A DNA stretch of 64,000 nucleotides from a virus (Duplodnaviria; Heunggongvirae; Uroviricota; Caudoviricetes). The position numbers were made by a program, and so were the translations under genes. The first letter of the stretch is position 1; each line of letters begins with the position of its first letter. Location of the stretch: positions 86,479 to 150,478 of the IMG/VR virus record IMGVR_UViG_3300021400_000025; one strand, written 5' to 3'. Below the pieces are notes generated by a model, which had not been told where the DNA came from, made no database searches, and was given only the letters and a program-made list of their open reading frames with translations. This document shows, piece after piece, positions 1 to 63,814 of the stretch.

Positions 1-1742
1 TTCTCCAGATGTCCAGGACAAGTCAAGACGCCCTTCAATGGGGAAATGTGGCTCCATTTGGTGTCGCCACCAATTGATGCAAGCGTCATCATCGTCAATG
101 GGACGAATGGGTGTTGGTGGTTGTGGATTGTGTTCACTGGGTGGGTCTGGGTCTTTTCGTGGTTGGATGAGTGGTGATCCACTGAAATGTTCCACAATCT
201 TGTGATGAATTCCCTTTCCCAGCAGTCGAACACTTCGCTCCACGCATCCATCAACGCCCGCTCGAATCCATCTATGCTCTCTATTGCCTGTTGACACCAA
301 CTGGGGAGTTCAACTATGGGCCCCTTTTCCGAGTATTCCCACACTTGGTTGAACATGGAGTCCAATATGTCCTTTCCCTTCACTGGAAGGAGTGCTTGGT
401 TGGTCATGACATCTATGACGCCCTGTTGTATGATGCATTTGAACGATGTTATCCTTTTCTTCAGCTCAGATGGACACAATTTCGCATGTGTGACGTTGCA
501 ATGCTTTCCAGGAGTTTCAAAGTCGTTGTACTTGTCCTCAATCAATTCGTTCATGATGTCCAAGTCTCTGTACAATGGCGTTGCGAGGACATCTATGTTG
601 CCCCAGATATCAGGATAGGGGCCTGGTCCGGAGGATGTGGTGCATCTTGAGGCTTCCAATGTGTCCAGAGCCTGATCCCTCATCTGCCTGAACAGTTTCT
701 TCACGCAACTGATTTTGTTCACCAAAACCACGTTTTCGACGTCATCTTCCTTTGGCGCGATGTGTGTTGTGCCCTCAATCTTCTGGTTCTCGACTCCGGT
801 GTCGGTCACCCCCAGTTTCTTCCCCATCTGGGAGTCTATCACCTTGGACGTGAAAACCTTGTCCTTCTTCTGGTCGGCCTTCTTCTCCAATTTCTCCTTC
901 AATCCCACAAAACTGGAGATGACTTTGCCCACAGTGCTCTTCGACACCAGTCTGTCTATCACCGACTCCAACAAGTCCAATTTTCTAATCATCCGCTCGT
1001 TGGCGATTGGCTTCATGTTGAACTCGCAATATGAACCCATCTTCATCCATTGAATCATCATTCCTGTGATGCCTGGAGTCCAGAAGTCCTTGTCCTCCAA
1101 TGGGGTGCATGACCATTGGTTGCGCTTGATGAACCAGTTGTTGCCCCAATCCTTCAACGCCCTTGCAGTCCACCACACATTTGTCTGGAAACTGGATTTG
1201 CAGTCTTGGTTGGGTATGGAAATCAGCTTGTCGCAAGAGTTGTTGTCCACCAGATTGTAGAGATGTTCCATCCGAATGATGTTCGCTCTGTACTGGTCAA
1301 GGGCGGCAAGAACCACATTCTTGTCCTTCTCGTAGTGTTGAACCCAGTCCTCTGACGCGAAGAACCTTGGGTTGGTGGATTCTGGGTCGTAGATTTTCCC
1401 CTCCAGCTTCAAGAAGTCCCTTACCGTCTTCTCCATCGTGATGAGGTCGTCCTGTGGGGTGAATTGGTCCGCCACATTGTCTCGCTTTGCAGTTGGACAT
1501 GACGAATCCTTGGGTATGGCTCGATATACAGTGTATACCTTCTTGCACATCTGGTTCACAGAATCGTCCACAGAATCCATGCCTATGTCGCCCAGTTCTT
1601 GTGGGGATGTGCCATCGCTTTGTCCTGGTGAATCGCTGCTGGACTGACCAGAATTGGAGCCACCTCCACATGATCCACCTTTCTTCTTGGGCTTCTCCTC
1701 TTTCTTGTCGTCTTCCTCTTCTTTTCCATCATCACCCGACAT
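1..1742 (-). CDS. hypothetical large protein (>=580 aa in window). The start codon is at 1742 and the C-terminus lies beyond the window start. The N-terminus is Lys/Glu-rich (MSGDDGKEEEDDKKEEKPKKKGG...)
   Basis: Manual minus-strand translation from the ATG (revcomp of 1740-1742) down to position 1 finds no stop codon. The ORF track omits it because no stop lies inside the window. The ATG directly follows the in-frame TAG of ORF 1743..1952. Confidence 0.6.
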   Translation of the reverse strand, partial: MSGDDGKEEEDDKKEEKPKKKGGSCGGGSNSGQSSSDSPGQSDGTSPQELGDIGMDSVDDSVNQMCKKVYTVYRAIPKDSSCPTAKRDNVADQFTPQDDLITMEKTVRDFLKLEGKIYDPESTNPRFFASEDWVQHYEKDKNVVLAALDQYRANIIRMEHLYNLVDNNSCDKLISIPNQDCKSSFQTNVWWTARALKDWGNNWFIKRNQWSCTPLEDKDFWTPGITGMMIQWMKMGSYCEFNMKPIANERMIRKLDLLESVIDRLVSKSTVGKVISSFVGLKEKLEKKADQKKDKVFTSKVIDSQMGKKLGVTDTGVENQKIEGTTHIAPKEDDVENVVLVNKISCVKKLFRQMRDQALDTLEASRCTTSSGPGPYPDIWGNIDVLATPLYRDLDIMNELIEDKYNDFETPGKHCNVTHAKLCPSELKKRITSFKCIIQQGVIDVMTNQALLPVKGKDILDSMFNQVWEYSEKGPIVELPSWCQQAIESIDGFERALMDAWSEVFDCWEREFITRLWNISVDHHSSNHEKTQTHPVNTIHNHQHPFVPLTMMTLASIGGDTKWSHISPLKGVLTCPGHLE

Positions 1743-1952
1743 CTACTCCTTGACTTCCTCCTTTACCTTCTCCTCTGCCTTGTCGCCAAGTTTTTCCCCG
1801 ATGTATTTTCCAACCATGGTGCCTATGGGGCCCCCGAAGTAAGCCCCGAGAGCGGCAGCAGCCATGCCACCCACCTTCTTCCCCAATTCACCTCGGCTTG
1901 TCATCTCGTTGGTGGAGGCCACATCATCTATATTGTCTTTCTTCTCTTCCAT
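1743..1952 (-). CDS. small glycine-zipper membrane protein (69 aa). Possibly the N-terminal membrane anchor of one TAG-readthrough ORF together with 1..1742
   Basis: ORF track. The motif GGMAAAALGAYFGGPIGTMVG is a GxxxG glycine zipper. The TAG stop is followed immediately, in the same frame, by the ATG of the next ORF. Confidence 0.5.
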   Translation of the reverse strand: MEEKKDNIDDVASTNEMTSRGELGKKVGGMAAAALGAYFGGPIGTMVGKYIGEKLGDKAEEKVKEEVKE

Positions 1953-1958
1953 CTTGTC

Positions 1959-1990
1959 TATTTACCATTGTGCGTGGGAAATGGTAAATA
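1959..1990. promoter_or_regulatory. divergent pair of late-promoter-like motifs (AATGGTAAATA on each strand), together forming a 10-bp inverted repeat
   Basis: tatttaccattg at 1959-1970 is the reverse complement of aatggtaaata at 1980-1990. The pair lies between the divergent genes starting at 1952(-) and 2024(+). The same motif recurs at 13887, 60071, 61111(-) and 61917. Confidence 0.45.
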
Positions 1991-2023
1991 CCATCCATAG
2001 AGAGATACATAGGAAAATCGACA

Positions 2024-2935
2024 ATGGTTAGCATCAACAACATAGCGGATCTCAAGAACAGAACATTGATGGAAAGCAACACGTTCAAATCGTTTGTGTT
2101 GTCTTCACAGTCCAACGACTTCACAAATCCTCCATCATTGAACGACATTCTGATACATGAATTCCAGACGGCGAACTCCATCACCTTGAATTCCATCTTG
2201 TCGAACTTCATAGTGAATCTGAAATATGCGTGGACAAAGTGGCTTGATCCACAGTCCATGCAGCATACATCGTATTTTCAAGTTCGGAGGGAGGGCGAAT
2301 CCTACTCCAAGCTGGACGACGAGGTTCGGCTTCTTCTGGACATCATGGACGATGGGACAGGGACGTTCAAGTCCAGATATCTGGAGATGGATGCAGTGAC
2401 CATGACCCCCTCGGAGGGGATTTCCAGATACATCTCCCTTGGTGGATTGTGGTATGGTGTGCAGAAGGTTGCGTTGAGGGACAATGAGGATGACGACAAG
2501 TTGGTTCTGGATTCAGAAAACAACTATATCAGCACAGAGAACCTTGTGCTTGCTCCTGAGCCGTTGAACGACTTCACGATGCACGCCAATCCTTATGGTA
2601 CGAATCCATTTGATGCGCCTGGTTGGGCATGGGACGATGAAGGGAATGCTCCAGATGAACCCAATCGGGGTTCGTTCAACGAGTTCATGAAGGTGCGTGC
2701 TGGAAGCGTCTTGAAAACATCCATCCAGATAGACTGCATTGTTGAAAACCTCTTCAAGGGCAACCAGTTCGACTGCGCGAAGGACGATCTTCTCGCCAAG
2801 TGGATATTTCCCGAATCAGAGTTCATCGTGTGCGCGGGTCATGGGATTTACGCCTTGGAGATGCAATATGACAATGGCAAGTTCGTGGGGATGATGATGT
2901 GGGACATAGGCAAGTTGATTCCCAATCTTGATTAG
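2024..2935 (+). CDS. standard-code segment 1 (303 aa) of the recoded ORF 2024..11590
   Basis: ORF track. It ends at TAG, and the frame stays open into 2987. Confidence 0.4.
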   Translation: MVSINNIADLKNRTLMESNTFKSFVLSSQSNDFTNPPSLNDILIHEFQTANSITLNSILSNFIVNLKYAWTKWLDPQSMQHTSYFQVRREGESYSKLDDEVRLLLDIMDDGTGTFKSRYLEMDAVTMTPSEGISRYISLGGLWYGVQKVALRDNEDDDKLVLDSENNYISTENLVLAPEPLNDFTMHANPYGTNPFDAPGWAWDDEGNAPDEPNRGSFNEFMKVRAGSVLKTSIQIDCIVENLFKGNQFDCAKDDLLAKWIFPESEFIVCAGHGIYALEMQYDNGKFVGMMMWDIGKLIPNLD

Positions 2936-5900
2936 AGCAAATACGAGAATTTTGAGTACGACTTCAAGTGGTGTGGGTTCATCTCCATGGACGAAATAAG
3001 CACATTGGTGGTGATGTTCAGTGACAAGAATGGCAAGTATCACTACGCATATGTCAATGAGAAGTCCTATGACGCGGCATATGGATTCACCCCCATACGC
3101 GATTTGGTGGACAACACATTGACGACCAATCCCCAGTTGGTGTTCAACAGAGTTGATTCAATCAAGCAGCTTGGCGATGTCAACATTGCGATGACCGACT
3201 ATGGCTTCTGGGACTTGGAGTTGAACCAGACGGACAACATCACATATTCATTCAGACACACGGGCAAGTCATACAAAGCATGCACATGGAATGGACATCT
3301 CATGACCAATACCAAGATAATACTTCCTGACAATCACCAGATGATGCCTGGGTCAAAGATATGCGAGTACGACAAGCAGTGGACATTGGATGATTCAACG
3401 AACACCCATTGGGTCATGGATGATTCCACAAAAAGCCAATTCGTTGATGTTGTGAGGGTTGATGGCGAGAAGCATAAGTTCGTGGGTGGACTTCCTGGAA
3501 ACTTCGCATTGTATGATGTCAGCGAAAGCAGTCCGGCGCAGTTGCTTGTTGACATGGATGAAAACGAGTTCAAAAGAGCCATCTTCGCGGATTCGGAGTT
3601 GGCATATAGGTTCACTGAATGGCTGTATGGTCAAGTGGTCTATCCAAACAAGGGGCAGAAGTACATAGACGACATAAAAACAGATGCATGGTGGACTGGA
3701 GATTTCCAGACAAAAGCAGAAACCAAGTCCATATCTGATGTGATATACCCACTTTCTTCCAGTTCGTTCTTGGTTGGCAAGTTCGAGGACATACGACATA
3801 TGATTGGCGATGAAGCCACCTCCCTTCAAGATTACTGCAAAGCATTGGCAGACATCAATGCCACGCCACCATCTTCTGATTTGAATTGGCTTGTCTCTGA
3901 TCAATCATCCTTGGAAGAAGCAATCAAGACTTGGTTCCGCGACACTGACAATGAAAATGGATTCAGTCAAAGGCACAAAGATGGTTTCGTTTAGGAGTTG
4001 ATGCCTCTCATTCAGGGGGAATATCCTCTTCTCTTCACGCACTTCAAGCAGTATTTGAACGATTGGTTGAACGAGACCATTGAGATTCAGGAAGGAGATT
4101 CGCAGACACTGACTTTCACCAATGTGGAGGAGATTTCCAGGAAGGTGAAGGACTACATCATGAGTCTGGTTCCAGTATGTCTGGAGATGGTTGGTTCCGA
4201 TCAATCTGATCTTTTGAGGAAGAACCGTCTTCATCAGAACCAGTTCATGCTTGGGAAGTCCCAGGCATTGGACATATACTCTCCCATGAACGCCAGCAAC
4301 GAGATGCTGAAGGCAGTGAAATCTACACCATTCTTCATGAACGCCAATTCCTATAGTGGAATCATCCAGACCAATGGTTCGCCGTTCAAGATTGAATAGA
4401 ATGTGGAATACGCCAAAAAGTCTGGAATGGTGGATGGCGATGGGAATATACAGTTGAATTGGAATGGCATCAAAGAATGGTTGCTTGGTGATGAAGTCAA
4501 GCAGGATGTGAACGTCCTTAAGGCTTTGGTCAAGACCCAGCTATATCGTCCATTGTTCTTCAAGCATGATGACTACGAGCATTTCACTTCTGATGCAAGC
4601 AAGTATTGGTGCGAGACGCAAAAGTCCTTCAACGACCATAATGGGGTTCTTCATCTTGTCAAATGGGAAAAAGATGGTGACGATGGGGAGAAGTGGGGGG
4701 ATTTGGATCCATCTGGATCAGGATTGACGAGTGATGCTTCAAACATGGAATATACTGAGCAGAAATACAACAAAATCTCCAATGTGATATCATACAATGT
4801 TGTTGTCAAGGACGTGCCCATTGTTGATGGCAAGTTCGTCTACAACGATGTTGAGTTCTATGTCGTCAAGGATAAGGACAACAACCCCACATCTGTGTAT
4901 TTCAACGAGTTCCAGAAGGAAATGGAGCAGTACACCCAGAAGATTGAGATTGAGGACAATAAGTTCAAAATCCAGATCAAATTCATTGACCCACGTGGAC
5001 AATTGGCCGTCAAGGATGTTGAATGCGAATTGATTGATGGTGGCACGAAGGTCAAATTGAATGGGCATGAACAGGAAGTCCATGATGGCATGTTCAATGT
5101 TGATGGCGTGTGGTATGTACTCAACAATGAAGAAAACATTGTGAAGTTCTTCAAGGTGGATGACAGTCTTTTGAGGAAATTGGTGGTTTCCCAGGATGGG
5201 CATGTCATGTTCGATAGGTGGAGTCTTGACATGGAGTTTGGTGGCAATGGTGGAAGTAGCGCAACAGTTGACATCACGCGCCACTATGACATGCCTGTTG
5301 TGGATGTCCTGGTCAAGGAATGGTGTGAATATGACAATTAGCCCATAGTCATTGATGAATTGCGCACATTTGAATGGTGGCTGGCGACCAAAATCAACGA
5401 CATGCGCATAATGCCACAATATCAATCCAGTGTGGATGCTCTGGGGAATGGAAATCTATATGATGGTGGGTTGATGGGTTCCCACTGCGTGTTCTCAGTG
5501 GAGAATGTGGTGGTGGATGGATATGTCCAGAGCCGAGGGGTGTTGACGAAGGGCGAGGGCGATTCCGCAGTGCGCATTGATTTGGGCGTTCTCTACAACG
5601 ACCAGATGGAATTGATTTCCACTAGAACGTTCAGGGGGACTGTCAATGATGCTGGCGAGATAGAAGAAGACCCAACTGGTGGATTCAGGTTCATATTGGA
5701 TTCTGAGGATTCCCCACGCAACATCTGCCATTGCTTCTGGTTGGAGGAGTCCAGGTACAAAAGCACACATTCCCACCAGGATGCTGTCGCGGATGTTGAA
5801 TTCATCTTGGACTACGACCAAGACGACAATGGGACGCCAATGGAGCCAGACCTGTCATAGACTGATTGGCAGATTGCTGTTGATTTTGGTGGACGTCCAG

Positions 5901-8900
5901 GCTTCCCCGAGTATCTGCATCTCACCCCAATCGAGGTGGTGACGCTCTCTGCAAACAAGCGCACGATACGGTTCAATGTGGATGTCAATGAGAATCGGGT
6001 GGGGAGCTACATTGTGAATTCCAGGGACGATAAGGTGGATGTTGTTGTGGATGGAAGGAGATATCGTCTGGATTTGAATGCGAGGACAGTGGAATCGTGG
6101 ACTCTCCAGAATGTTGAGGTTAGCACGATGGACTTCTCCACCCAATACACCCCCCAGACCCTTCGCGATGCGATGGTCAAGAACATTCAGCAGTGGATGC
6201 TGGGCGAGATTGTCCATGCCATGTCCCACAACAACGATGAAAATCCAACCATCATGAAACTGGAGTTGACGGACAAGATGAAGTTGTGGCTGGACATGTT
6301 CGCGGACGACGAGAGTGTTCAGATGCACCTTTTGGCTCAACCCAATGCTGACACCCAGTCCGAGGTGAAGTTCAGAGAGATCTTCAAGAACGATTGGGTG
6401 GAGGAGCGCAACGATTCTGGTCAAGGTCTGGCGTGGAAACATCTAAAGGAAACGATAGATGGGGTGTATGGCGATCAGGTGTCCTTGTCGTTGAACACCG
6501 AACCTGCAATGGAGGTTGGATACGACGAGAATGGCGTGGCAAAGACATTCACCCTCAAGGTGCATGTTGATGTCCATGTCATGCAGAACAGAGACTTGGT
6601 GAAAAACACACCAAATTTCAACGACAAATGGATGGCTTCTTCCGCGACCCTGCACGATGTTGTGTTCTATGTGGAATTCACGCCCAAGTTCTCGTATCAG
6701 TCCAACCCCCTTTCATATGATGTGGAATATGGGATTGAATCTTCAGACAGCATTCTCGCCACCATTGATGGCATCATATTCAACAGTCTTGGAAAGACCA
6801 GAACAAAGACATTGGAAGTTCCAATTAGGATAGAGAGATTCAGTTTAGATGGGATGGAATCTGGACAATCTTCGATGTCCGATCTCAATGGTTTGCTGCC
6901 TGACCAGTTGCTTCCGAAATTTCTGGATTCAACAAAGAGCAGAGCTTTGCTTGAATCTGTCAACGAAAAGATTGATTCGTCGGCATCCTCCTTGGTTGTT
7001 GGAAGTCAAGTCGTCGTCAATGCCCAGATGAAGGATGATGGCGATATCCAGACTGGACATGCGTGGGAGATTGGCTCGCCCATACCATCTGAATCATCTC
7101 TGGGTGGTCTTCAATTCATGGAGGAGAGCCGAGGAAGAACCCAGATATCGGGCGAGGAGTATCAATTGGTTTCATCTGACTCGCGGTTGGTTTCTTTGGA
7201 CGACAACAAAGTCTACTTTGATGTGGAGGAGATAGACCGTGGAATCATTGGCGAACAAGGGAAAGTCCATGTCGCATTGACTGATGAGGAAGTCCCCGAC
7301 TCAACCTATTTGAATGGTTGGTTTTCGCTGGAGAACATCAACGACACAATGTATCTCAAAATCAATGCCAAGAATGGTGGTGATTCCATCTCCTTGCCAG
7401 AGAACAAGGGGGAACTGGTTCTTCATGCCAGTGATTTCCCTGAATTCAAGCAAGAGTACAAGTGGACGATGGGGGATTCCACCACTAGTTCCTTGTGGCA
7501 ATACACATCTGAATTGACTGTCCAAGATGAAAACTGGAACTTCAAGGTGGAGAAGATGCGGTTGGAGAATGATGGAACGGGGTCCGAAACATCCTCAACA
7601 GAATCTGAATTGGTTGGTTCAGCCACGAGAAGCAGTTTAAGTTTCTTGCTGCTGGAGGATGACCAACCAAAGCTGGACGAGCAAGACGACAAATGGGTTG
7701 GTTTTCTGTCTGAAGACGAAGCAGATTCCTCCCAGTCTGGTGTTTTCATGGGACCGAGCCTTACAAACCAAGACGATTTCCATGTCAAGTTGATGTGGGA
7801 AGTTGGTGAAAATGTCGAACCAAAATACTATTTGGTGAACGACAATGCACCAGAAGTCTGTGATGTTTCATCAGAGGATGGCGCATTGTTGTTTGATTAT
7901 GAGTTGCCAATCCAAGTTTCCCCATCAAGTGATGAACCATCATCAAGTGATGAACCATCATCAAGTGATGAACCATCATCAAGTGATGAACCCAAGAAGT
8001 ATGGAGTGGATGGCAAATAGAAGATCAGATTCAAGTTCAACATTGATTCCGACACGAATGAAATAACCTTGTCATAGGCGCAATTGGTGAGCGACACCAA
8101 CAACCGCGATGTGCGTGTTCTTCTTGGTGGCATTCCTGACGCGAAGTTGTGGGATGATGCATTGAATTAGAATGAGAATGAGGATGCTTTGGTGGCGAAG
8201 AACAGCATGAAATCCACTGTGGACAGATGCATGATATACCATACTGTGGGCTTGTTGGGAACCAATGCCGAGTATATTCCAACAGACACTTTCACTGTTG
8301 AGTCATAGGAGACCGTGATGGATGGTGGAATTGAGTTTTCGTTCAAGTTGAAAGTCCAGACCATCGTACAGATGCTCTATGTTGATTAGACCACGGACCA
8401 GAATCCACAATAGGTCATATTTGATCAATATCTGCTGGCAAAGACCTCATCAACAGATATCCCATCGGTGGACAGATTGTTCGCGCTCAAGACATTCTCC
8501 GGCGACAACATCATCATCATAGACTCGACATCTTCATCAATAGACAAAATAGACAATGCGTTTGCGTGGATTCCCACGAACCTGAAAAACGGCATCAAGC
8601 GGGATGAGTATGACTTGAAGATGTTCTATTTGAATGATTTCGTGCCGTCAAATTCATCGTTGCCCAGCTTGAGATATTGTCCGTGCGATATTGTCTCACT
8701 GCCCCCAGACCAGGCTCCATCGCGCGATGGCGAAGTATATGGCAGACAATACACTCACAAGAAGGACATTGTGGTTGAACACACAGACATTGATCAGAAT
8801 GACGCAAATGGGAAGTTCTGGTTGAATCTTGCAGATACCCTCAAGTCAATCACAATCATCCCATCCAATGACCAGTATCCTGATTTGATGCCTGAAAGTG

Positions 8901-11590
8901 ACATCAGCATTCCTGATGCGCTGCGCCAGAAGATGATGGAGCTTGTGGACAACATCATGAAGTTGGACAATGGCTACTTCAGCATGGTGTATCAACAGTT
9001 CAAGCAATTCATGGATGTCCTTGTGGGTGAGTTGTCCAGGAGCATTGACATGGAACACATCAAGGATTTGTGTCGATTCAAGTTCAACAACACAGTGACT
9101 TTCAATGGAAGGACATGGAAAATGTTGAATCCCATCCCACCACCATTGAACAGTACATACAAATCCTGCTTGGACGCATTCGATCTCCATCTATGGAAGC
9201 AATTTTGCGACGACTTCATGCGGGTTGATGATTTGACAGTATACGATGATCGCGACTACAAGCATATTCTCTTACCTGACTACTATGATCAGTATCAATC
9301 AAAGATATAGGCCATGAAGAATGCCAAACTTGGCGACTTGTTCCAGCAACTGGATGAGATGGATGGCATCTATGATGAAGTGTTTAGGGATCTCGCCGAC
9401 AAGGTCAGGTTCATCAATCTTGTTCCCACCACCATCAAGGGTGGAATCAAGGGCATGTTCAACGCAGATGATCAGTGCAATGTGTTCCATTCGCAGGGAG
9501 AGACCATTGTTTGGCGCAGATTCTTCTCGTCTGAACCACAGATGAAGACCATACTGCACAACAAGATTTCCAATCCTGTGGGGAACCATGTGTTCGACCC
9601 ATAGTTCCAGATATTGGACTTTGGCATTGATGATGATGGTTGGTTGTTCAAGTTCGCCAACAGGGATTTGACGCATGACGACACGATGGCGATATCGGAT
9701 GCGTTCTGCGTCCATTGCGAGGGGGATTTGTGGCATCTGAATGTACTTGACACATATTTCAGATCCCCCACATCATATCGCATCAAGGACATCGCCTATG
9801 AGCAGAACGAAGATTGCATCTATGTTCTGTTCTCCGACGACAACCATCTATACAGGTTCGATCATCCATCCATTGGGCAGGATTCCAGGAAATGCGTTCT
9901 TCTTGTGAAGGAGTCTGCAAGCATGAAGATTGAGACGTTCTCCACTGTCCAATTGCAGGATGGCAGTCCATAGTTGGAATCCGTCTATCTGGACTATGAA
10001 GGGTCGGACAATTGGACGATTAGGTTGTACGCCAACGAGTCTGTGGAGACATGGCCCGGAAGTCCATCGTTCTCCATGTTCCAGACCTACAACAACATTT
10101 TGTTCGGGAACTCCTTGTTCAACTCAGGGCAGATGCAGTTCCACAACATATCGAAGAACAAGTAGATGGTGGACATGTTGGATGTCAATGAGGTGGATGA
10201 CCTCTACTATGGATTGTTCAAGAGCAATGTCAAAGGTGATGATGGTGGGTACACGGTGTTCAAGTCATCTGGAGATGGGCAGGGGGTCGTGAAGCGTCTT
10301 CCTTGGAAGGTCGTTGTCCCCAGCATGTTCAGGACTTGCGATCCCTTGTATTCGCTCTATGTCGTGGTCAAGGGGGATGATGGCAAGGTTCAACTGCGCG
10401 AGATTTCATGTCCTGACCAAGACATCTACGCCGACAGAGTGATTGAGGTGCAGCGGATTCTGGAGGAGAAGGATGGCGAGGAGGTGGGCGACTTGAACAT
10501 CAGCTGGCTGATGATGGACGATTTCATCTTGCGCTCTCCCCAATCTTCGTTCTTGATGCTCTCCAACAAGGGGTTGTCCAGAATCCACTATGTCTCCCGC
10601 ATGAAGCAGTTGTCCATAGATGGGCTTCCTGAGTTCAAGGATCTTCTGGCGAAGACATTGAAGGATGGCATTCTCCATAGGCACATGGAGGAGAAGCATG
10701 TCGAGGATTTGTTCAAGCAGATTGAACGCAAGGTCAATCAGCGTGAAACTGGATTCAGCGTGTTCGATTTGCTTCCGACAGAATTCCAACAGACCCAGGA
10801 CATTGGCGTGATTCCAGACTCCAAGATTGACGATGACGACGATTTCACCGATCATAGATCAGACTCCATACAAGTGTCCACCGACTTGACGATGGCAGAT
10901 GGCATGTTCGCGTCAGTCGACACCAATCCTGGGATTGTCTCTGGGGCAGTGGCCAATCCAGCCACAACATATGACAGCGACTATGTGTTCTTGAAGTCCC
11001 AGCGCAACCCCTCCATAGTGGGAACGGAGTTCTATGACTACATCACCGACACTGATGGGAACATCTTGATGGATTTGTATCAGATTCCCTTCATATACCA
11101 GGTCAACACCAACAACACATATGACCTCTACATCAACCTCCCCACAACCAGAACCAAGTATCTGAACAGAATCGCGGGGACTTTGAAGGATGACTTGACA
11201 AGCCAGGTGTTGAAGGATGATGTCCGCGCCAGATTGAACTTCAACAACGAGATGATGCCGAACAACCTTGACGAATCCACAACAAGGTTGAGGGTGTACA
11301 TCGACAGAAAATACATCTCAATAGGCAATGTCGAGTTGGTTGAGATTTCGGGCAACTCAATCCCACTTCAGATATACAGGGACAGTGGCGCGAACAATGA
11401 TCTCTACGATTCAATAGCCCTTGAAAGCAGATGGGATGGAGAGGTTGTTGAAATCAACGAGCCAAGCAAGGACATCAACAAGGTCATGTTGGAGTTCGAG
11501 TGCTATGGAACCGACTCTCAGTCAATCCACATCCAGGGCAAGACCTTGATTAACAGGGCGTTGGACGACAAGAAATACATCTTTGGCTGA
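2024..11590 (+). CDS. composite giant ORF of about 3188 codons, continuous in one frame. It contains 15 in-frame TAG codons and no TGA/TAA, and terminates at TGA 11588-11590. Putative recoded virion megaprotein
   Basis: All eleven standard-code ORFs between 2024 and 11590 share frame 2. Every junction is a TAG followed by open frame, which I verified codon by codon (TAGs at 2933, 3992, 4397, 5339, 5858, 8018, 8075, 8168, 8306, 8387, 8411, 9308, 9602, 9971, 10163). The internal 'starts' have no Shine-Dalgarno sequence. A TAA at 1985-1987 closes the frame upstream. Confidence 0.55.
2987..3994 (+). CDS. standard-code segment 2 (335 aa) of the recoded ORF
   Basis: ORF track. Same frame as segment 1. 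Ends at TAG. Confidence 0.4.
   Translation: MDEISTLVVMFSDKNGKYHYAYVNEKSYDAAYGFTPIRDLVDNTLTTNPQLVFNRVDSIKQLGDVNIAMTDYGFWDLELNQTDNITYSFRHTGKSYKACTWNGHLMTNTKIILPDNHQMMPGSKICEYDKQWTLDDSTNTHWVMDDSTKSQFVDVVRVDGEKHKFVGGLPGNFALYDVSESSPAQLLVDMDENEFKRAIFADSELAYRFTEWLYGQVVYPNKGQKYIDDIKTDAWWTGDFQTKAETKSISDVIYPLSSSSFLVGKFEDIRHMIGDEATSLQDYCKALADINATPPSSDLNWLVSDQSSLEEAIKTWFRDTDNENGFSQRHKDGFV
3998..4399 (+). CDS. standard-code segment 3 (133 aa) of the recoded ORF
   Basis: ORF track (TTG start). Same frame. Ends at TAG. Confidence 0.35.
   Translation: MMPLIQGEYPLLFTHFKQYLNDWLNETIEIQEGDSQTLTFTNVEEISRKVKDYIMSLVPVCLEMVGSDQSDLLRKNRLHQNQFMLGKSQALDIYSPMNASNEMLKAVKSTPFFMNANSYSGIIQTNGSPFKIE
4403..5341 (+). CDS. 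standard-code segment 4 (312 aa) of the recoded ORF
   Basis: ORF track (GTG start). Same frame. Ends at TAG. Confidence 0.4.
   Translation: MEYAKKSGMVDGDGNIQLNWNGIKEWLLGDEVKQDVNVLKALVKTQLYRPLFFKHDDYEHFTSDASKYWCETQKSFNDHNGVLHLVKWEKDGDDGEKWGDLDPSGSGLTSDASNMEYTEQKYNKISNVISYNVVVKDVPIVDGKFVYNDVEFYVVKDKDNNPTSVYFNEFQKEMEQYTQKIEIEDNKFKIQIKFIDPRGQLAVKDVECELIDGGTKVKLNGHEQEVHDGMFNVDGVWYVLNNEENIVKFFKVDDSLLRKLVVSQDGHVMFDRWSLDMEFGGNGGSSATVDITRHYDMPVVDVLVKEWCEYDN
5360..5860 (+). CDS. standard-code segment 5 (166 aa) of the recoded ORF
   Basis: ORF track (TTG start). Same frame. The TAG at 5858 is followed by open frame up to 5936. Confidence 0.35.
   Translation: MRTFEWWLATKINDMRIMPQYQSSVDALGNGNLYDGGLMGSHCVFSVENVVVDGYVQSRGVLTKGEGDSAVRIDLGVLYNDQMELISTRTFRGTVNDAGEIEEDPTGGFRFILDSEDSPRNICHCFWLEESRYKSTHSHQDAVADVEFILDYDQDDNGTPMEPDLS
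5936..8020 (+). CDS. standard-code segment 6 (694 aa) of the recoded ORF. It ends with a PSSSDE tandem repeat
   Basis: ORF track (GTG start). Same frame. Ends at TAG 8018. Confidence 0.4.
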   Translation: MVTLSANKRTIRFNVDVNENRVGSYIVNSRDDKVDVVVDGRRYRLDLNARTVESWTLQNVEVSTMDFSTQYTPQTLRDAMVKNIQQWMLGEIVHAMSHNNDENPTIMKLELTDKMKLWLDMFADDESVQMHLLAQPNADTQSEVKFREIFKNDWVEERNDSGQGLAWKHLKETIDGVYGDQVSLSLNTEPAMEVGYDENGVAKTFTLKVHVDVHVMQNRDLVKNTPNFNDKWMASSATLHDVVFYVEFTPKFSYQSNPLSYDVEYGIESSDSILATIDGIIFNSLGKTRTKTLEVPIRIERFSLDGMESGQSSMSDLNGLLPDQLLPKFLDSTKSRALLESVNEKIDSSASSLVVGSQVVVNAQMKDDGDIQTGHAWEIGSPIPSESSLGGLQFMEESRGRTQISGEEYQLVSSDSRLVSLDDNKVYFDVEEIDRGIIGEQGKVHVALTDEEVPDSTYLNGWFSLENINDTMYLKINAKNGGDSISLPENKGELVLHASDFPEFKQEYKWTMGDSTTSSLWQYTSELTVQDENWNFKVEKMRLENDGTGSETSSTESELVGSATRSSLSFLLLEDDQPKLDEQDDKWVGFLSEDEADSSQSGVFMGPSLTNQDDFHVKLMWEVGENVEPKYYLVNDNAPEVCDVSSEDGALLFDYELPIQVSPSSDEPSSSDEPSSSDEPSSSDEPKKYGVDGK
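7921..7992 (+). repeat. 18-nt tandem repeat ccatcatcaagtgatgaa (about 4 copies) encoding (PSSSDE)n
   Basis: Seen directly in the sequence and in the translated protein. Confidence 0.7.
8468..9310 (+). CDS. standard-code segment (280 aa) of the recoded ORF
   Basis: ORF track (GTG start). Same frame as 5936..8020. Five closely spaced TAGs (8018 to 8413) separate it from the previous segment. Confidence 0.4.
   Translation: MDRLFALKTFSGDNIIIIDSTSSSIDKIDNAFAWIPTNLKNGIKRDEYDLKMFYLNDFVPSNSSLPSLRYCPCDIVSLPPDQAPSRDGEVYGRQYTHKKDIVVEHTDIDQNDANGKFWLNLADTLKSITIIPSNDQYPDLMPESDISIPDALRQKMMELVDNIMKLDNGYFSMVYQQFKQFMDVLVGELSRSIDMEHIKDLCRFKFNNTVTFNGRTWKMLNPIPPPLNSTYKSCLDAFDLHLWKQFCDDFMRVDDLTVYDDRDYKHILLPDYYDQYQSKI
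9314..9604 (+). CDS. standard-code segment (96 aa) of the recoded ORF
   Basis: ORF track. Same frame, TAG-delimited on both sides. Confidence 0.35.
   Translation: MKNAKLGDLFQQLDEMDGIYDEVFRDLADKVRFINLVPTTIKGGIKGMFNADDQCNVFHSQGETIVWRRFFSSEPQMKTILHNKISNPVGNHVFDP
9614..9973 (+). CDS. standard-code segment (119 aa) of the recoded ORF
   Basis: ORF track (TTG start). Same frame, TAG-delimited. Confidence 0.35.
   Translation: MDFGIDDDGWLFKFANRDLTHDDTMAISDAFCVHCEGDLWHLNVLDTYFRSPTSYRIKDIAYEQNEDCIYVLFSDDNHLYRFDHPSIGQDSRKCVLLVKESASMKIETFSTVQLQDGSP
9974..10165 (+). CDS. standard-code segment (63 aa) of the recoded ORF
   Basis: ORF track. It starts on the codon right after TAG 9971 and ends at TAG 10163. 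Confidence 0.35.
   Translation: MESVYLDYEGSDNWTIRLYANESVETWPGSPSFSMFQTYNNILFGNSLFNSGQMQFHNISKNK
10166..11590 (+). CDS. terminal standard-code segment (474 aa) of the recoded ORF. Ends at TGA
   Basis: ORF track. Its ATG directly follows TAG 10163 in frame. Confidence 0.45.
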   Translation: MVDMLDVNEVDDLYYGLFKSNVKGDDGGYTVFKSSGDGQGVVKRLPWKVVVPSMFRTCDPLYSLYVVVKGDDGKVQLREISCPDQDIYADRVIEVQRILEEKDGEEVGDLNISWLMMDDFILRSPQSSFLMLSNKGLSRIHYVSRMKQLSIDGLPEFKDLLAKTLKDGILHRHMEEKHVEDLFKQIERKVNQRETGFSVFDLLPTEFQQTQDIGVIPDSKIDDDDDFTDHRSDSIQVSTDLTMADGMFASVDTNPGIVSGAVANPATTYDSDYVFLKSQRNPSIVGTEFYDYITDTDGNILMDLYQIPFIYQVNTNNTYDLYINLPTTRTKYLNRIAGTLKDDLTSQVLKDDVRARLNFNNEMMPNNLDESTTRLRVYIDRKYISIGNVELVEISGNSIPLQIYRDSGANNDLYDSIALESRWDGEVVEINEPSKDINKVMLEFECYGTDSQSIHIQGKTLINRALDDKKYIFG

Positions 11591-24955: not shown

Positions 24956-26128
24956 ATGTTGAAGGTTCAAGAGTTCATCAAGGGCAACTCGGATTGGGAG
25001 TGCTTGCTTTCGTCCGAGCCTTATTGCATCTCAATATCGCACGATACGATGTATGGGCGCGATTTGGTCATGTTCAAGTACGACCAGATTCGCTCTGACT
25101 TGTCCATTCCTCTTGTTCAGGAGTGTCGTGGTCTGATTCTGGATTCAAACACCTTCGAGGTCGTGTCCCATCCCTTCCACAAGTTCTTCAACTATGGAGA
25201 GGAACTGGCTGTGGACATTGACTGGAAAACAGCCTGGACATCCAGTAAGATCGACGGATCCATCATCAAGGTCGTGAATCTGGATGATGACAATTTCCTG
25301 ATTTCAACGAATGGCATGATTGACGCATTCAAGTGTTCTCTGCCTGAGAACTATGGCCGTCCGTTTGAGACCTTTGGCGAGCTGTTTCTGGAGGGAATGA
25401 AGTTCTATGGTCTGACGATGGATGATTTTCCCCGGCTGTTCAAGCCTGGATTCACCTACATGTTCGAGTTGACTTCTCCTTGGAACCAGGTTGTGGTGAA
25501 TTGGAATGAAACCAAGGTGTGGTTCATTGGGGTGAGGGACAACAGGACTGGCGAGGAGATTAGGTTCTCTGACCACGAACTGTCCAAGATCTTCGACACT
25601 CCCAGGGTGTTTCCGATGAGGTCGTTCGATGATGTGGTGAAGGCTGCGAAGGAACTTCCTGACGACGAGGAGGGATATGTGGTGTGTGATTCTGGATTCA
25701 GAAGGGTGAAAGTCAAGTCCCCCCGATACGTCCAGCTCCACTACATGGCCGGCAACCAGATTTGGTCTCCAACGAGGGTCATGGAGATAATCCGGGACAA
25801 CGAGGTGTCGGAGTATGTGGCATACTTCCCCAAGTTCAAGGTGGCGTTCGACGAAATCAAGGCGAAGTACGATGCCTATGTGGATGAACTGGAGGATGTG
25901 AAGGAGGCCATTGACAATCTGATGGTGGTGGAATGGAACATCACCAAGAAGGACTTCGCCAAGTGGGTGTTCACCATCAACACCATCCGCCCTTACTCTG
26001 GGTTCGCGTTCTCCTACTTTGATTCAGTATACGCGAAAGTCAAGAAGGACGATGCCCTGGTCAGGAACGTTGACGAGTACCTTGCCAAGATGCCCACTGC
26101 GAAGTTGGTGGAGGCTCTTGGATTGTAA
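24956..26128 (+). CDS. rnlA: ATP-dependent RNA ligase 1 (T4 RnlA / gp63 family)
   Basis: Track ORF 24926..26128, with the ATG at 24956 lying after SD caaggagc. The motifs VQECRGLIL, KIDGSII (the KxDG nucleotidyl-lysine motif) and EGYVVCDSGFRRVKVKSPRY match T4 Rnl1 ALECRGIMF, KEDGSLV and [20 protein letters not shown]. Confidence 0.8.
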   Translation: MLKVQEFIKGNSDWECLLSSEPYCISISHDTMYGRDLVMFKYDQIRSDLSIPLVQECRGLILDSNTFEVVSHPFHKFFNYGEELAVDIDWKTAWTSSKIDGSIIKVVNLDDDNFLISTNGMIDAFKCSLPENYGRPFETFGELFLEGMKFYGLTMDDFPRLFKPGFTYMFELTSPWNQVVVNWNETKVWFIGVRDNRTGEEIRFSDHELSKIFDTPRVFPMRSFDDVVKAAKELPDDEEGYVVCDSGFRRVKVKSPRYVQLHYMAGNQIWSPTRVMEIIRDNEVSEYVAYFPKFKVAFDEIKAKYDAYVDELEDVKEAIDNLMVVEWNITKKDFAKWVFTINTIRPYSGFAFSYFDSVYAKVKKDDALVRNVDEYLAKMPTAKLVEALGL

Positions 26129-26153: not shown

Positions 26154-26753
26154 ATGAAGATTGTCAACGAGATTGGGTTGAACAGGTTGTTCAACAAGCA
26201 TACCGAGAATGGCTATGTCATGGTGTCTGCTTGCCGCCATGACTGGAGCGATGACGATGAGGTTGAGAATCGCGAAATCAACAACATCAAGACGAAGGAG
26301 CTGAAGGAGGACATCCAGAAGGCCGGCTACCAGTACATCCCTGTCCAAGGTGGATTCGTTGAAGACGATGGCACCGAGGTTGTTGAGAGGTCGTTTCTCA
26401 TCGTCAACTTCAGAAACAAGTCCGGCAAAGGGGAGCCAGCCGGCGACTTCTCCAAGTTGAAGGATCTCGCAATCAGTCTGTGTGGCAAGTACAACCAGGA
26501 TTCAGTTCTTGTGGTTGAGCCCGGTGGCAAGCCAACCTACTACACCCGAGAGGGCGAGGTTGATGGTCAGTTCAATTCTGTTTCTGCAAGAGACGCGGCC
26601 CAGCAGTATTTCACCAGGATTGGTGGTGGAAGGAAGTTCTCGTTCATCGAGGGGGCTTCCCAACCAGGAACAATCAATGGAGTGCGTTCAAGGCGCATGA
26701 CTGGCGAGATTTGCGAGTTGGCCGGCTATGACAGGCGCAGGAAGGGAAAGTGA
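26154..26753 (+). CDS. hypothetical protein (199 aa)
   Basis: ORF track. SD aaggagaaacc. Confidence 0.5.
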   Translation: MKIVNEIGLNRLFNKHTENGYVMVSACRHDWSDDDEVENREINNIKTKELKEDIQKAGYQYIPVQGGFVEDDGTEVVERSFLIVNFRNKSGKGEPAGDFSKLKDLAISLCGKYNQDSVLVVEPGGKPTYYTREGEVDGQFNSVSARDAAQQYFTRIGGGRKFSFIEGASQPGTINGVRSRRMTGEICELAGYDRRRKGK

Positions 26754-28051: not shown

Positions 28052-28306
28052 ATGAGAAGTCTAAATGGGACAAAATGGGCAAGGAAGCACAACCCATTCA
28101 GCTGCACACAACTGAGCGCTGACGTGAAAGGGGATGTCGTGACCTTGTGCATGGAAAATCCAAACGCAGTGACCATACGGGATTCAGAATCCAACATCCA
28201 CCATCTTGGGCGATTTGAATTTGGGGAGAACTTTGAACTGCTTTCTGACGATGGTTCTGAATCCCCGATTGAATTCGACACAAGCATTGGGAAGATGCTC
28301 TTATAG
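28052..28306 (+). CDS. hypothetical protein (84 aa), TAG-terminated
   Basis: ORF track. SD ggaggttg. Confidence 0.45.
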   Translation: MRSLNGTKWARKHNPFSCTQLSADVKGDVVTLCMENPNAVTIRDSESNIHHLGRFEFGENFELLSDDGSESPIEFDTSIGKMLL

Positions 28307-28336
28307 TCAAGGACGCAAAAGAAAGGATGCTGAGAT

Positions 28337-35673: not shown

Positions 35674-35946
35674 ATGACAGTCGCTGAAATGAAAAAGGTT
35701 CTTGACGAACTGCCAGATGATTATGAAATCCCCGTGCTCACTTGGCTCTTCAAGGAGAATCACCCCTATCTTGTTTCTGAGGACTTCCACCACTTCATTG
35801 AGAAGATGGATGAGAAGGACTTGGACATCAAGGACATATGCTGGGAATTGTCCCTGCTTGGGGATTCGCAGGAGGATCTTGGCAAGGGTCATCTTGTGAA
35901 CAACATCTGGGAGATTGTGAATTATTTACAGAGGTTCATGAAATGA
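35674..35946 (+). CDS. hypothetical protein (90 aa)
   Basis: ORF track. Confidence 0.45.
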   Translation: MTVAEMKKVLDELPDDYEIPVLTWLFKENHPYLVSEDFHHFIEKMDEKDLDIKDICWELSLLGDSQEDLGKGHLVNNIWEIVNYLQRFMK

Positions 35947-39540: not shown

Positions 39541-39590
39541 CCACGATGCTAAAGACATCGTGGCTTCACGGATGTTCTGCTTCGCAGAAC
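39541..39590 (-). ncRNA. two perfect hairpins (ccacgatg-N7-catcgtgg and gttctgc-ttc-gcagaac) at the 3' end of tnpB. Candidate omega-RNA / IS right-end structure
   Basis: Stems read directly in the sequence. Their position matches where IS200/IS605 TnpB guide RNAs are encoded. Confidence 0.35.
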
Positions 39591-40843
39591 GACCCGCGCT
39601 GTATTCGCCTTGGCGAATCACCCCTACGTTCCATAGGTACTTTAAGATTTTTCTCGACAAGGTCCTTGATGTTCAACATGTTCTGTGCGGCATGGATGTC
39701 TCTGTCTTGTTCGTATCCACACTAACACTTGTATGTCCTATCATTCAAGGATAGTTCGTTCATCTTATGGCAATGAGGACACCACTTCGTTGTTGGGATG
39801 TACTTGTCCAATATGATGACATTATCAAGTTTCATCAACTTGGATTTGATTGTTCCCATGCAACTGTGTTGAATAACTTTTGACATTCCTTTTTGCTTGT
39901 GCCATTCTGCCAGTTGCTCGTCTTGTATCACGATTGTGTCATATTGCTTTAGCATATGAACTATCTTGTTTGCCTTGTCTTTTTTCTTATTCGTCAGCTT
40001 CTGGTACTGACGACGGATTCTCTTGATTGTCTTGTATCTCCTGTTTGAACCTTTCTTTTGACGTTGCAGTTTCTTCTGCAACATCTTGAGTCGTTCACTT
40101 TCTTCAACAGATACGTCAAGTTTCTCACCTTCTGAAGTCGTTATGTTCGTTTTGATGCCAAAATCCAGACCTATTTCCTTGTCGTTGGTTTTGGTTTTTG
40201 GCATCTTGTTCTTGTCTATGTAGCATGTCACCTTAAGATAATAGCCATCTGGTTTCTTCAACAAATTTGCATTGGCATATTCATCTACATTCGATAATTG
40301 ATGTGTTCCACGAACTAATATCTTGCCATGTATTCCTTGTATCTTGATCTTGTTTTCTGACTTGAAACTATATGTCTATCCATATTGCTTGAGTGGAATG
40401 CAATTCAATTCAGACTTGAACTGCAAGTTGCCAAATTTCTAATGTCCCCTTTTGACAAGTTGTATTATGGCCATTTGATTGGAGACCATTCTTGCCAAGA
40501 TTGCCTGCTTCTATGCTGCCGACAAGTATTTCAATTCAGATTGAATCAAGTTCTTGTCCTTGTCGTAGTGGTTTACTGTTTTGATGTTTGTGGAGTTGAT
40601 GTCGGATAATCTCAATCCAGATTGTTGATGCAGATTGAGGACATGATTGTAGAACCACTTTCCCTCAACAAAGAGCATGTCAAGTTCTTCGTGTTGGCGT
40701 TTGTTCAATCGTTTCTCTACAATCTTTAGTTCATATGACTTGACGACTTGGTTCTACCTGCGAAGTCTTGTTTGGCTTCGGGTTGCAATAATCTTGTTCT
40801 TCTTTTCGTCAGAACAGACCAATCTATTGTCAATATCCTTCAT
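39566..40843 (-). CDS. tnpB: IS605/IS1341-family TnpB (RuvC-like RNA-guided nuclease). Intact only if 5 in-frame TAGs (40754, 40511, 40439, 40376, 39722) are sense codons
   Basis: Manual minus-strand translation gives one frame from ATG 40843 to TGA 39566, broken only by TAGs. RuvC-I is EIGLDFGIKT, RuvC-II is VIQDEQL, the zinc finger is CPHC...C(TAG)CGY, and RuvC-III DRDIHAAQNMLNI lies after TAG 39722. Track ORFs 39722..40264 and 40511..40708 are fragments of it. Confidence 0.65.
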
Positions 40844-42246: not shown

Positions 42247-42250
42247 CAAA

Positions 42251-56150: not shown

Positions 56151-56164
56151 AAAGGAAACTGACA

Positions 56165-56536: not shown

Positions 56537-57697
<1,161 letters not shown>

Positions 57698-60061: not shown

Positions 60062-60087
60062 CCTTGTCCAATGTTGGTAAATACTGA

Positions 60088-60360: not shown

Positions 60361-60417
60361 ATTATTGTAAATAATACCACAAAGACCCCATGTCTTTTTC
60401 ATTAGAGGTATATTACA

Positions 60418-62014: not shown

Positions 62015-63724
62015 ATGGCACAAGTTAAATTCTACTCTGTGGCTTCCCTCCCAGAGTCACCAAATGCTGGTGGCGTGTATTTCGTCGATAATGGCGAACT
62101 CTACAAGGGTGGTCAGAGGTTCGGACTTGGTCGCGTGACAGTTGATGCCGATTTCGTTCCTTCCACATCCTCCAAGGATGGGCAGGCTCGTGGTGACATC
62201 GTGGTGACTGGTTCTGGCGCAGGCTGGGTCTTTGATGGTGAAAATTGGCAAAGCATTGGTGGAGACATTGCGTCTCTCCAGAGCATGTGGCAGGCCGATA
62301 TCTCCACATGGACGGCAGGACTTGCCACCACAGGTGAAGACAAGTATATCACTGGCATCACCCAGGGTGCGGATGGCAAGGTGACAGCTGCAACCTCCAC
62401 ATTCTCCACGGATGTGAAGACGGCTATTGGCGATGGCGCTGCTTCAAGCACGGCAAATGGCATCACAGTGTCCGTGGTCACGACATCTGGTTCTGTGACA
62501 GGCGTTGAGGTGGCAGCTGCGAACATCAGCGCCACTTCTGGCACATTCGAGAACTTGACGGTCACTGACACAGCAACCTTCTCAGCAACCACAGTTTCCG
62601 CTGACACCCTTACGATTGGTGGAAGCACGGTTGAGCAGTTGGCTGACAAGCAAATTGCTGCAATCTCTGCAAGCACAGTTGTAAGCGCAAGCAATGGCAT
62701 CACAGTGAGCGTGACGACCCAGGGTGGTTCTGTCACAGCAGTCTCTCTCAATGCTGAGGCATTTGGCAACACAATCCACTTCCGTGGCGTTGAGGCTTCT
62801 ACTGGCGCTGTGAGCGATCCTGTGGCTGGCGATATCGTGGTGATTGGTTCTACACCTGGTGAGGGCTTCGTTGCCGGTCAAGAGTACATCTATGATGGCA
62901 CGAAGTGGGAACTCATTGGCGACCAGAACACCTATGCTGTGAATGCATATTCTTCAACAGCTACAGTGTTCACGGGAGTTGAGACGGTTCCTGGTGCGTT
63001 GAATGCGGCAGGTGCTGCGATTGACGCGCTCAAGACCAAGACTGACGCATATGTTGGTGGTTCTGCTTCTGATGCTGACCAGGGCGTTGCTGTCACGGTG
63101 AGCGTTGATGCTACGACACTCGCTCCTTCTGTGGATGTGGTTGTCACTTCCGCGACATTGTTCGATGGATTGGATGCTACGGTGTCCTCTGCTGCCAAGG
63201 GCGTTGAAGTTGAAGTTGTTGAGGAGAATGGCAAGCTCACAAGCGCAACTGTTGCTGTGACGGCTTCTTCCGAGATGGCATTTGGTGCAACTGGTTCTGC
63301 AAATGACCTCGCAACCACGGCTGCCGTCAAGAGCTACTTCGAGAACAACCTTGTGTGGCTCGGAGCGGATGGCAATCCGGTTGATGGGGGCAGCACGCCT
63401 GATCCTGCAAAGACCAGGTTCACCATTCAAGGTGGACCGGTTAGGGAACATAACATAAGTGGATCGCTTGACAGGCAGTGGCTGGATAGCAATGAATATT
63501 ATGATGGGGAAAACTCTGAGTGGTTAGTGAACATACTTCAGGTAGACATTGGAAATACAGTTACAAGCATCGGAAGTCAGACATTCGATATGTGCGGCGA
63601 TCTTACGAGTGTGACGATCCCCGACACTGTGACCAACATTGACATGAATGCGTTCATGGGTTGCAATAACCTTACAAGTGTGACAATAACTGCAAATGGT
63701 GGAAATGCTGAATCTGTCAAGTAG
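62015..63724 (+). CDS. tail-fibre-like protein (Ala/Thr/Val-rich beta-helical repeats) with a C-terminal BspA-type leucine-rich repeat. TAG-terminated, with 18 more open codons to TGA 63779-63781
   Basis: ORF track. Repetitive GITVSV(V/T)T..GSVT.V segments. The C-terminus ...SIGSQTFDMCGDLTSVTIPDTVTNIDMNAFMGCNNLTSVTI... A late motif lies at 61917. Confidence 0.55.
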   Translation: MAQVKFYSVASLPESPNAGGVYFVDNGELYKGGQRFGLGRVTVDADFVPSTSSKDGQARGDIVVTGSGAGWVFDGENWQSIGGDIASLQSMWQADISTWTAGLATTGEDKYITGITQGADGKVTAATSTFSTDVKTAIGDGAASSTANGITVSVVTTSGSVTGVEVAAANISATSGTFENLTVTDTATFSATTVSADTLTIGGSTVEQLADKQIAAISASTVVSASNGITVSVTTQGGSVTAVSLNAEAFGNTIHFRGVEASTGAVSDPVAGDIVVIGSTPGEGFVAGQEYIYDGTKWELIGDQNTYAVNAYSSTATVFTGVETVPGALNAAGAAIDALKTKTDAYVGGSASDADQGVAVTVSVDATTLAPSVDVVVTSATLFDGLDATVSSAAKGVEVEVVEENGKLTSATVAVTASSEMAFGATGSANDLATTAAVKSYFENNLVWLGADGNPVDGGSTPDPAKTRFTIQGGPVREHNISGSLDRQWLDSNEYYDGENSEWLVNILQVDIGNTVTSIGSQTFDMCGDLTSVTIPDTVTNIDMNAFMGCNNLTSVTITANGGNAESVK

Positions 63725-63814
63725 ATGATGATTGACGCTGGAGCGACAGAAGTAACTACTTGGAACATGCCAAGCTGATTGACTTGTCAAGCAAGCATTA
63801 GATTGGTACATTAA

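Follow-up and report, generated by a model that had tools for sequence, protein, structure and literature searches.

The stretch analysed here, hereafter the window, comprises 64,000 nucleotides (nt) of a Caudoviricetes virus (positions 86,479 to 150,478 of IMG/VR record IMGVR_UViG_3300021400_000025; one strand, 5' to 3'). It comes from a ~418-kilobase (kb) phage of the sheep rumen that very probably reads the codon TAG as glutamine (Gln), as in genetic code 15. Positions 2024-11590 would then hold one gene, which we call the giant gene, in which 15 TAGs serve as ordinary Gln codons, and translation in this phage would end only at TGA and TAA. The code itself (TAG as Gln, with TGA and TAA as stops) is observed; its implementation is proposed by analogy with a published model of recoded phages.

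The giant-gene frame is open from 1988 to 11590, between a TAA at 1985 and the TGA at 11588. Its 3,188 codons include no TAA, no TGA and 15 TAGs (at 2933, 3992, 4397, 5339, 5858, 8018, 8075, 8168, 8306, 8387, 8411, 9308, 9602, 9971 and 10163), which bears out the count given in a first-pass annotation of this DNA, where 15 TAGs and no in-frame TGA or TAA before 11588 had been reported. The two shifted frames of the same stretch contain 7 TAA each, 18 and 13 TAG, and 106 and 171 TGA. TGA and TAA have thus been fully purged from the giant-gene frame; the in-frame frequency of TAG is about that of the non-coding frames. The longest run free of TAA and TGA is 3,201 codons, compared with a mean of 168 and a maximum of 311 in 200 shuffles. 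As a separate observation on composition, the trinucleotide TAA is scarce throughout 2024-11590 (over 3,188 codons, each non-coding frame of the five has 3-9 TAAs and 39-171 TGAs).

The coding signal also persists from one TAG to the next. We scored codon usage as log-odds trained on 19 TAG-free genes of the window, and the in-frame score was above zero in 15 of the 16 inter-TAG segments, including pieces of only 18-45 codons, and about zero in the 7-codon piece at 8390-8410. In both shifted frames the score was below zero in all 16 segments.

A comparison of the whole giant-gene translation with 5.8 billion proteins returned one full-length homologue (P0001; 2,949 amino acids (aa), 34-36% identical end to end). 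Its gene, at 827-9676 of locus L001, has 47 in-frame TAGs, which its own database translates as Q. Further orthologues were sought with the conserved C-terminal 474 residues in IMG/VR and in JGI/GenBank metagenome contigs, and full-length ones were recovered at loci L002, L003 (on the same contig as L007), L004, L005, L006 and L009, on phage contigs of 158-434 kb. These are single frames of 3,161-3,613 codons with 7, 12, 13, 9, 27 and 14 TAGs, respectively. The seven full-length homologues thus come from other rumen or gut phage contigs, and the nearest relative of the window gene is L005 (42% identical). In each of the eight orthologues, the window gene included, only TAG interrupts the frame and TGA terminates it. 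We also asked whether any homologues are split into discrete genes that lie in different frames and stop at TGA or TAA, a possibility raised in the first-pass annotation, and found that all seven are single-frame, TAG-interrupted and TGA-ended.

When the eight sequences are aligned, homology runs unbroken through every TAG site of the window's giant gene. TAG occupies 141 columns of the alignment, 138 of which are private to one sequence, and TAG sites turn over almost completely among the orthologues. Most TAG sites of the window gene lie at variable positions and some lie in conserved motifs, with TAG 10163 falling within NISKNK-x-M-x-D-[IM]-LDVNEV, the family's best-conserved motif. The single-frame homologues and the homology through the TAG sites support the earlier proposal of one open reading frame (ORF) of about 3188 codons in which TAG is a sense codon of code 15.

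The identity of the amino acid is ambiguous from the window's giant gene alone, becomes clearer with more homologues and is settled by a second, much smaller gene. Across all orthologues, the residues that face TAG are enriched 4.4-fold in Gln, 1.65-fold in glutamate (Glu) and 1.5-fold in serine (Ser). In a pooled log-likelihood based on substitution frequencies from the giant-gene alignment itself, Gln beats Glu by 75 nats over the 141 TAG columns. As a control, the same ranking with BLOSUM scores was applied to resampled ordinary codons and gave the correct residue at least 99.5% of the time. The nearest relative, L005, carries Gln at 4 of the 13 aligned TAG sites of the window gene.

The smaller gene (60071-60361) encodes a product that scores 85.6 bits against TIGR03905, a curated bacterial family with a cutoff of 67.7; the match covers positions 1-77 of the 78 in the profile and spans both TAGs of the gene. 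The product has the four Cys residues and the TSCPD motif of the family, and the GGCxG, IxC and TSCPD columns are invariant in its alignment with 31 homologues. In that alignment TAG 60311 occupies the position of the TSCPDQ motif at which Gln is near-invariant; all homologues that extend over this site have Gln there, an NCBI Tannerellaceae protein among them. L220, the closest relative, which comes from a different sheep-rumen sample, has CAG at this codon, and a third phage (L222), whose public protein call ends exactly there, has TAG. Because TAG 60311 stands at a near-invariant Gln that is CAG in the closest relative, TAG most likely encodes Gln in this phage, as judged from sequence comparison. 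The other TAG of this gene, at 60176, faces Ser in close relatives. Thus, when we asked which residue the TAGs align with, as the first-pass annotation had suggested, the pooled columns and the TSCPD site pointed to Gln, and the giant gene of the window taken alone was ambiguous.

Recoding extends beyond the giant gene. With TAG as sense, the 84 plus-strand genes of the window end in TGA (67) or TAA (17) and never in TAG, and eleven genes carry in-frame TAGs, counted as 38 in one tally and about 35 in another (Table 1). Calling genes under code 15, a check proposed earlier, repairs these eleven genes; under code 11, ~2.3% of the window is lost as coding sequence. TAGs are ~8-fold denser in the 2-21 kb block, counted together with the gene at 62015 (3.5 per 1,000 codons), than in the 72 genes of the 21-62 kb region (0.43). 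The bias noted in the first-pass annotation is therefore real, but not confined to one module: the 2-21 kb block is enriched, and TAGs also interrupt the TSCPD gene near 60 kb, a TnpB-like gene near 40 kb and a gene with leucine-rich repeats (LRRs) near 62 kb.

Several results weigh against reading TAG as Gln throughout this phage. Transfer RNAs were sought in the window, its flanks and related loci with ARAGORN (default settings, introns allowed, and lowered thresholds) and with Rfam, and no tRNA with the anticodon CUA (tRNA(CUA)) was found at ten related loci or in the 82 kb, out of a genome of ~418 kb, that the window and its two 10-kb flanks make up. The sole tRNA of the window is not a suppressor, and the low-threshold matches all lie inside coding regions. 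Pfam searches likewise found no release factor or aminoacyl-tRNA synthetase in the window, in its 10-kb flanks or at the relatives' loci. None of the window's genes was recognised as encoding a capsid protein, portal or terminase, and the words 'late' and 'virion' are therefore inferred. TAG may still terminate three small genes, in which it lies 3-8 codons before a TGA or TAA. Finally, the 15 sites of the window's giant gene, taken by themselves, rank Glu first, Ser second and Gln third, 5.6 nats below Glu (the counts are non-independent); these sites align better with Glu, aspartate (Asp) or Ser than with Gln, and at the most conserved of them, 10163, all homologues have Glu or Asp.

The three small genes bear on an alternative that we consider rather unlikely, and that would refine the Gln reading without contradicting it. 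TAG may have two meanings over time, acting as a stop early and at some gene ends and as Gln once suppression is established, with truncated N-terminal products made as well. Three of the five TAGs in genes of the 21-62 kb region lie close to the gene end (23157, 28304 and 56148), far more terminal than a uniform distribution would place them. The TAGs at 20597 and 63722 lie 17-22 codons from the ends of two larger genes, and the pattern fits function under both codes. However, back-up stops soon after an ancestral TAG are also expected under full reassignment, and the 15 internal TAGs of the giant gene sit in homologous coding sequence. The TAGs of the three small genes look like former stops with close back-ups, an arrangement that would keep the genes functional whichever code applies. 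The earlier estimate that TAG ends about 4 of 80 early genes was roughly right.

It is far less probable that TAG is a sense codon for another residue, such as Glu, Ser or pyrrolysine. Such a reading would suit the Glu, Ser or Asp that best match the giant-gene sites, above all the Glu or Asp at 10163, as well as the Ser that faces TAG 60176, and ARAGORN labels the CUA tRNAs of other huge phages 'Pyl'. Against it stand the near-invariant Gln at 60311, the pooled lead of Gln and the Gln residues of L005. In addition, GAG becomes TAG by a single mutation, and the Glu or Asp that faces several giant-gene TAGs is most simply explained by such GAG-to-TAG changes, with a conservative substitution of Gln for Glu. 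Pyrrolysine decoding was rejected; no pyl genes were seen among the Pfam matches of the window.

We give almost no credence to a standard-code reading, in which the region would be made up of ten or eleven separate small genes, all with TAG as their stop. This is how the public European Nucleotide Archive (ENA) annotation presents it, with calls that split the giant gene into ten proteins (303, 335, 132, 304, 128, 673, 277, 96, 119 and 474 aa). All of the pieces lie in one frame without TGA or TAA. In this frame the standard code gives ten ORFs of 70 aa or longer (starting at 2024, 2987, 3998, 4403, 5360, 5936, 8468, 9314, 9614 and 10166); the first-pass annotation had listed eleven same-frame ORFs, a number that is reached only if a shorter piece is counted. 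Between 8018 and 8389 the inter-TAG pieces are 18, 30, 45 and 26 codons long, and the next piece, 8390-8410, has 7 codons, so that the five pieces in 8021-8410 are too short to be genes. The internal starts had been described as lacking a Shine-Dalgarno sequence, and indeed none of the nine carries a Shine-Dalgarno-like motif, compared with 50 of the 84 real gene starts of the window; six of the nine are GTG or TTG. Finally, the homologues are continuous over every junction and have their own TAGs elsewhere, a comparison that already refutes separate genes. The many stop codons within a long frame might also suggest a pseudogene in decay, or an error of assembly or sequencing. This is no more credible and was rejected, since the in-frame stops are all TAG (0 TGA vs. 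more than 100 expected), the coding signal is intact, all 15 TAGs recur in two ENA scaffolds, in Logan contigs and in GenBank AUXO01 contigs, which are four other assemblies of the phage, and are therefore not assembly errors, and the gene is kept in at least seven related phages and ~150 cluster representatives. The Logan and AUXO01 short-read contigs of this phage end at a perfect tandem repeat inside the giant gene (Table 1).

If TAG is read as Gln, the expression model published for recoded phages (Borges et al., bioRxiv 10.1101/2021.08.26.457843) suggests how this might come about. The host would use the standard code, and the TAG-free early genes of the phage would be translated first. 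By analogy with Lak, crAss-like and other recoded phages (PMC6784885; PMC13037316), a phage tRNA(CUA) charged with Gln would then be supplied by a gene elsewhere on the phage genome, beyond the window, RF2 or other factors possibly helping, and the TAG-bearing genes would become readable only after this suppressor is made. The full-length yield of the giant gene would equal the suppression efficiency raised to the 15th power, making the gene a stringent gate on late expression. Because the yield would scale with the 15th power, the giant protein would be made only when termination at UAG is almost abolished. Code 15 has been validated by proteomics (PMC9523058), and a suppressor tRNA(CUA) is present in 60.8% of recoded jumbo phages, which makes it common and not universal (PMC13037316).

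Pattern scans of IMG/VR found many suppressor tRNAs in other huge phages; the contigs related to the window were not reached by these scans. Four unrelated huge phages in IMG/VR (L034, L040, L073 and L075; 320-425 kb) carry tRNA(CUA) genes, and those of L034 and L073 have a 17-nt anticodon arm and T-arm sequence in common. A narrower tRNA(CUA) pattern, derived from two huge-phage suppressor tRNAs, matched 81 IMG/VR loci, none of them homologous to the window and none on the three related contigs, which were not reached. The 81 matches suggest a widespread family of suppressor tRNAs. On a 424-kb contig of GC content similar to that of the window, the protein beside the suppressor tRNA matched only its own contig.

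The function of the giant protein can be approached through its relatives. The protein itself, its homologue P0001 and four distant giant homologues had no Pfam or PHROG match. The C-terminal 474 residues are the most conserved part, and a structure model of them predicts beta-propeller-like blades and a beta-sandwich. A profile of this region finds ~150 cluster representatives, many of them fragments called under code 11; ~20 are proteins of 1,800-3,400 aa that have only the last ~170 residues in common. In several homologues, Listeria-Bacteroides repeats (PF09479) or BspA-type LRRs (LRR_5) follow the shared C-terminal region. Such repeats are typical of cell-surface binding. Our best guess, held with low confidence, is that the giant protein is a virion-surface or tail-associated adhesin, because of these surface repeats in the homologues and the weak tape-measure and scaffolding PHROG matches of the neighbouring genes.

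Table 1. Features of the window, in window coordinates (TAG positions are those of in-frame codons).
Feature	Position	Strand	Details
Divergent neighbour, 846 codons in full contig	1..1952	-	One TAG (1743-1745); glycine-zipper N-terminus; weak PHROG tail tape-measure match
Giant gene, 3,188-residue protein	2024..11590	+	ATG 2024, TGA 11588; 15 in-frame TAGs
Tandem repeat inside giant gene	7923..7992	+	18 nt x 3.9, perfect; encodes SSSDEP x4
Most conserved C-terminal 474 residues of giant protein	10166..11587	+	53-77% identical in 40+ database fragments
Gly/Ser/Lys-rich gene, 527 codons	13926..15509	+	5 TAGs (14121, 14178, 14193, 14694, 15096); stop TAA
Coiled-coil gene, 1,019 codons	15502..18561	+	2 TAGs (17740, 17917); weak PHROG scaffolding-protein match
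523-codon gene	19097..20668	+	TAG 20597, 22 codons ahead of TGA
Small gene	23007-23180	+	TAG 23157, 3-8 codons before TGA/TAA
tRNA-Arg(TCT)	23184..23259	+	Sole tRNA of window; not a suppressor (ARAGORN)
Small gene	28052-28333	+	TAG 28304, 3-8 codons before TGA/TAA
TnpB-like gene (OrfB_IS605 and Cas12f1-like TNB)	39566..40843	-	5 TAGs; no TAA/TGA over 430 codons
Small gene	55854-56162	+	TAG 56148, 3-8 codons before TGA/TAA
TIGR03905/TSCPD-family gene, 96 residues	60071..60361	+	TAGs 60176, 60311; uncalled in public ENA annotation
587-codon protein, BspA-type LRR C-terminus	62015..63778	+	TAG 63722, 17 codons ahead of TGA

Among the other TAG-bearing genes, the TnpB-like gene matches OrfB_IS605 (40.6 bits) and Cas12f1-like TNB (38.7 bits) as well as TnpB proteins of known structure. 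Its codon-usage score (0.13) is unusual in this phage, and the gene lies in an AT-skew reversal amid plus-strand genes. This mobile-element nuclease appears to depend on the alternative code of the phage. A gene with a TnsA-like endonuclease N-terminal domain (18574-19071; 56.7 bits) stands between two large TAG-bearing genes and may be a homing endonuclease. It is followed, beyond the 523-codon gene, by a DUF2490 protein with a signal-peptide-like N-terminus (20707-21396). DUF2490 proteins are of a bacterial outer-membrane type and unusual in phage.

The remaining genes of the window serve DNA modification, nucleotide metabolism and RNA repair. A TET-associated glycosyltransferase (TAGT) gene beside a methyltransferase-like gene, a SAM lyase and ThyX (41374-43645, 26154-26753 and 50705-51388) form a set of modification and nucleotide genes whose sequences suggest hypermodified DNA. 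Near the tRNA-Arg(TCT) gene are an RNA ligase (PHROG 562), a HAD_SAK_2 'Swiss Army Knife' RNA repair domain and a PP-loop ATPase (23184-26128, 35838-36440 and 37512-38558). The NAD-dependent DNA ligase is apparently divided between two genes in swapped order. The upstream one (53229-53993) carries the zinc-finger and BRCT domains, and the other (56591-57697), 2.6 kb farther downstream and separated from the first by five to seven small genes, carries the adenylation and OB domains. TGA terminates 80% of the window's genes, and ~60% have an AGGAG-like Shine-Dalgarno sequence, a feature atypical for hosts in the Bacteroidota.

The window is 100% identical to two scaffolds from sheep-rumen metagenome assemblies in ENA (ERZ1756080 NODE_700, 418,130 bp; ERZ28612966 scaffold_7, 416,990 bp), and relatives of the phage are found on contigs of 400-434 kb. 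Among 50,697 GenBank phage records, megablast found no match for the giant gene or for an 18-kb early region, and tblastn found none for the C-terminal domain or a 500-aa neighbour, 'Prevotella' (Lak) phages being included in that set. Many phages have proteins that match the DNA ligase and a T4-gp52-like topoisomerase subunit at less than 40% identity, with the best topoisomerase matches in T4-like phages. This lineage of ~400-434-kb rumen phages is undescribed. The ENA records ERZ1756080 and ERZ28612966 and the GenBank AUXO01 record are annotated with the standard code, probably because the coding loss of only ~2.3% is below the 10% gain in coding density by which a recent survey of jumbo phages recognised recoding (PMC13037316).

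Recoding of TAG to Gln is itself already well known; what stands out here is the undescribed lineage, the lightness of its recoding, the turnover of TAG sites, the orphan protein family and a TAG-bearing TnpB. A broader interpretation, which we put forward tentatively and think possible, though doubtful, is that this undescribed lineage is recoded so lightly that density screens and public pipelines miss it, and that its giant gene is a multiplicative gate for a new class of giant virion adhesins. If so, the use of code 15 among huge phages would be under-counted. In general, lightly recoded genomes slip past coding-density screens, and alignment checks, such as a TAG at an invariant Gln, are needed to find them. 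The light recoding of this phage has led to wrong annotation in the public records, where the largest gene stands as about ten orphan fragments and at least one conserved gene (TSCPD) is uncalled. The code-15 phages gain a clade of rumen phages of ~420 kb, along with a large orphan protein family, and 15 TAGs in one ORF offer a clean test case for how complete suppression must be.

The closest known systems are the code-15 phages of the gut and rumen, namely the crAss-like, Lak and recoded jumbo phages (PMC6784885; bioRxiv 10.1101/2021.08.26.457843; PMC9523058; PMC13037316). Like them, the window phage has in-frame TAGs in intact, conserved genes, with TAG facing Gln and TGA or TAA as stops. 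It also resembles them in having many TAG-free genes and a TAG-rich block of large, possibly structural genes, in its huge genome, and in its origin in an animal gut. It differs from the recoded phages of the jumbo-phage survey in that its coding gain of ~2.3% falls below the 10% used there. Lak megaphages are ~540 kb or more, whereas this genome is 417-418 kb (relatives 400-434 kb), and its giant protein and 500-aa neighbour are without a match in the GenBank phage records.

Programmed readthrough, as in the Q-beta A1 protein and retroviral gag-pol, likewise decodes a stop codon as an amino acid and so extends a protein. In those cases, however, one leaky stop of low efficiency gives two products, while here 15 TAGs are spread through one homologous ORF, one of them in a highly conserved motif, and near-complete reassignment would be required. 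Pyrrolysine decoding resembles the proposed mechanism in that UAG is read by a tRNA with the anticodon CUA, but the residue here is most likely Gln, and no pylS, pylT or pylBCD was present among the Pfam matches of the window. Pyrrolysine is confined to a few enzymes of methylamine pathways. Finally, the giant protein recalls known giant virion proteins, such as the 3,500-aa virion RNA polymerase of N4 and long tail fibres and adhesins, in its size, in its large TAG-bearing neighbours and in the C-terminal surface-binding repeats of its homologues.

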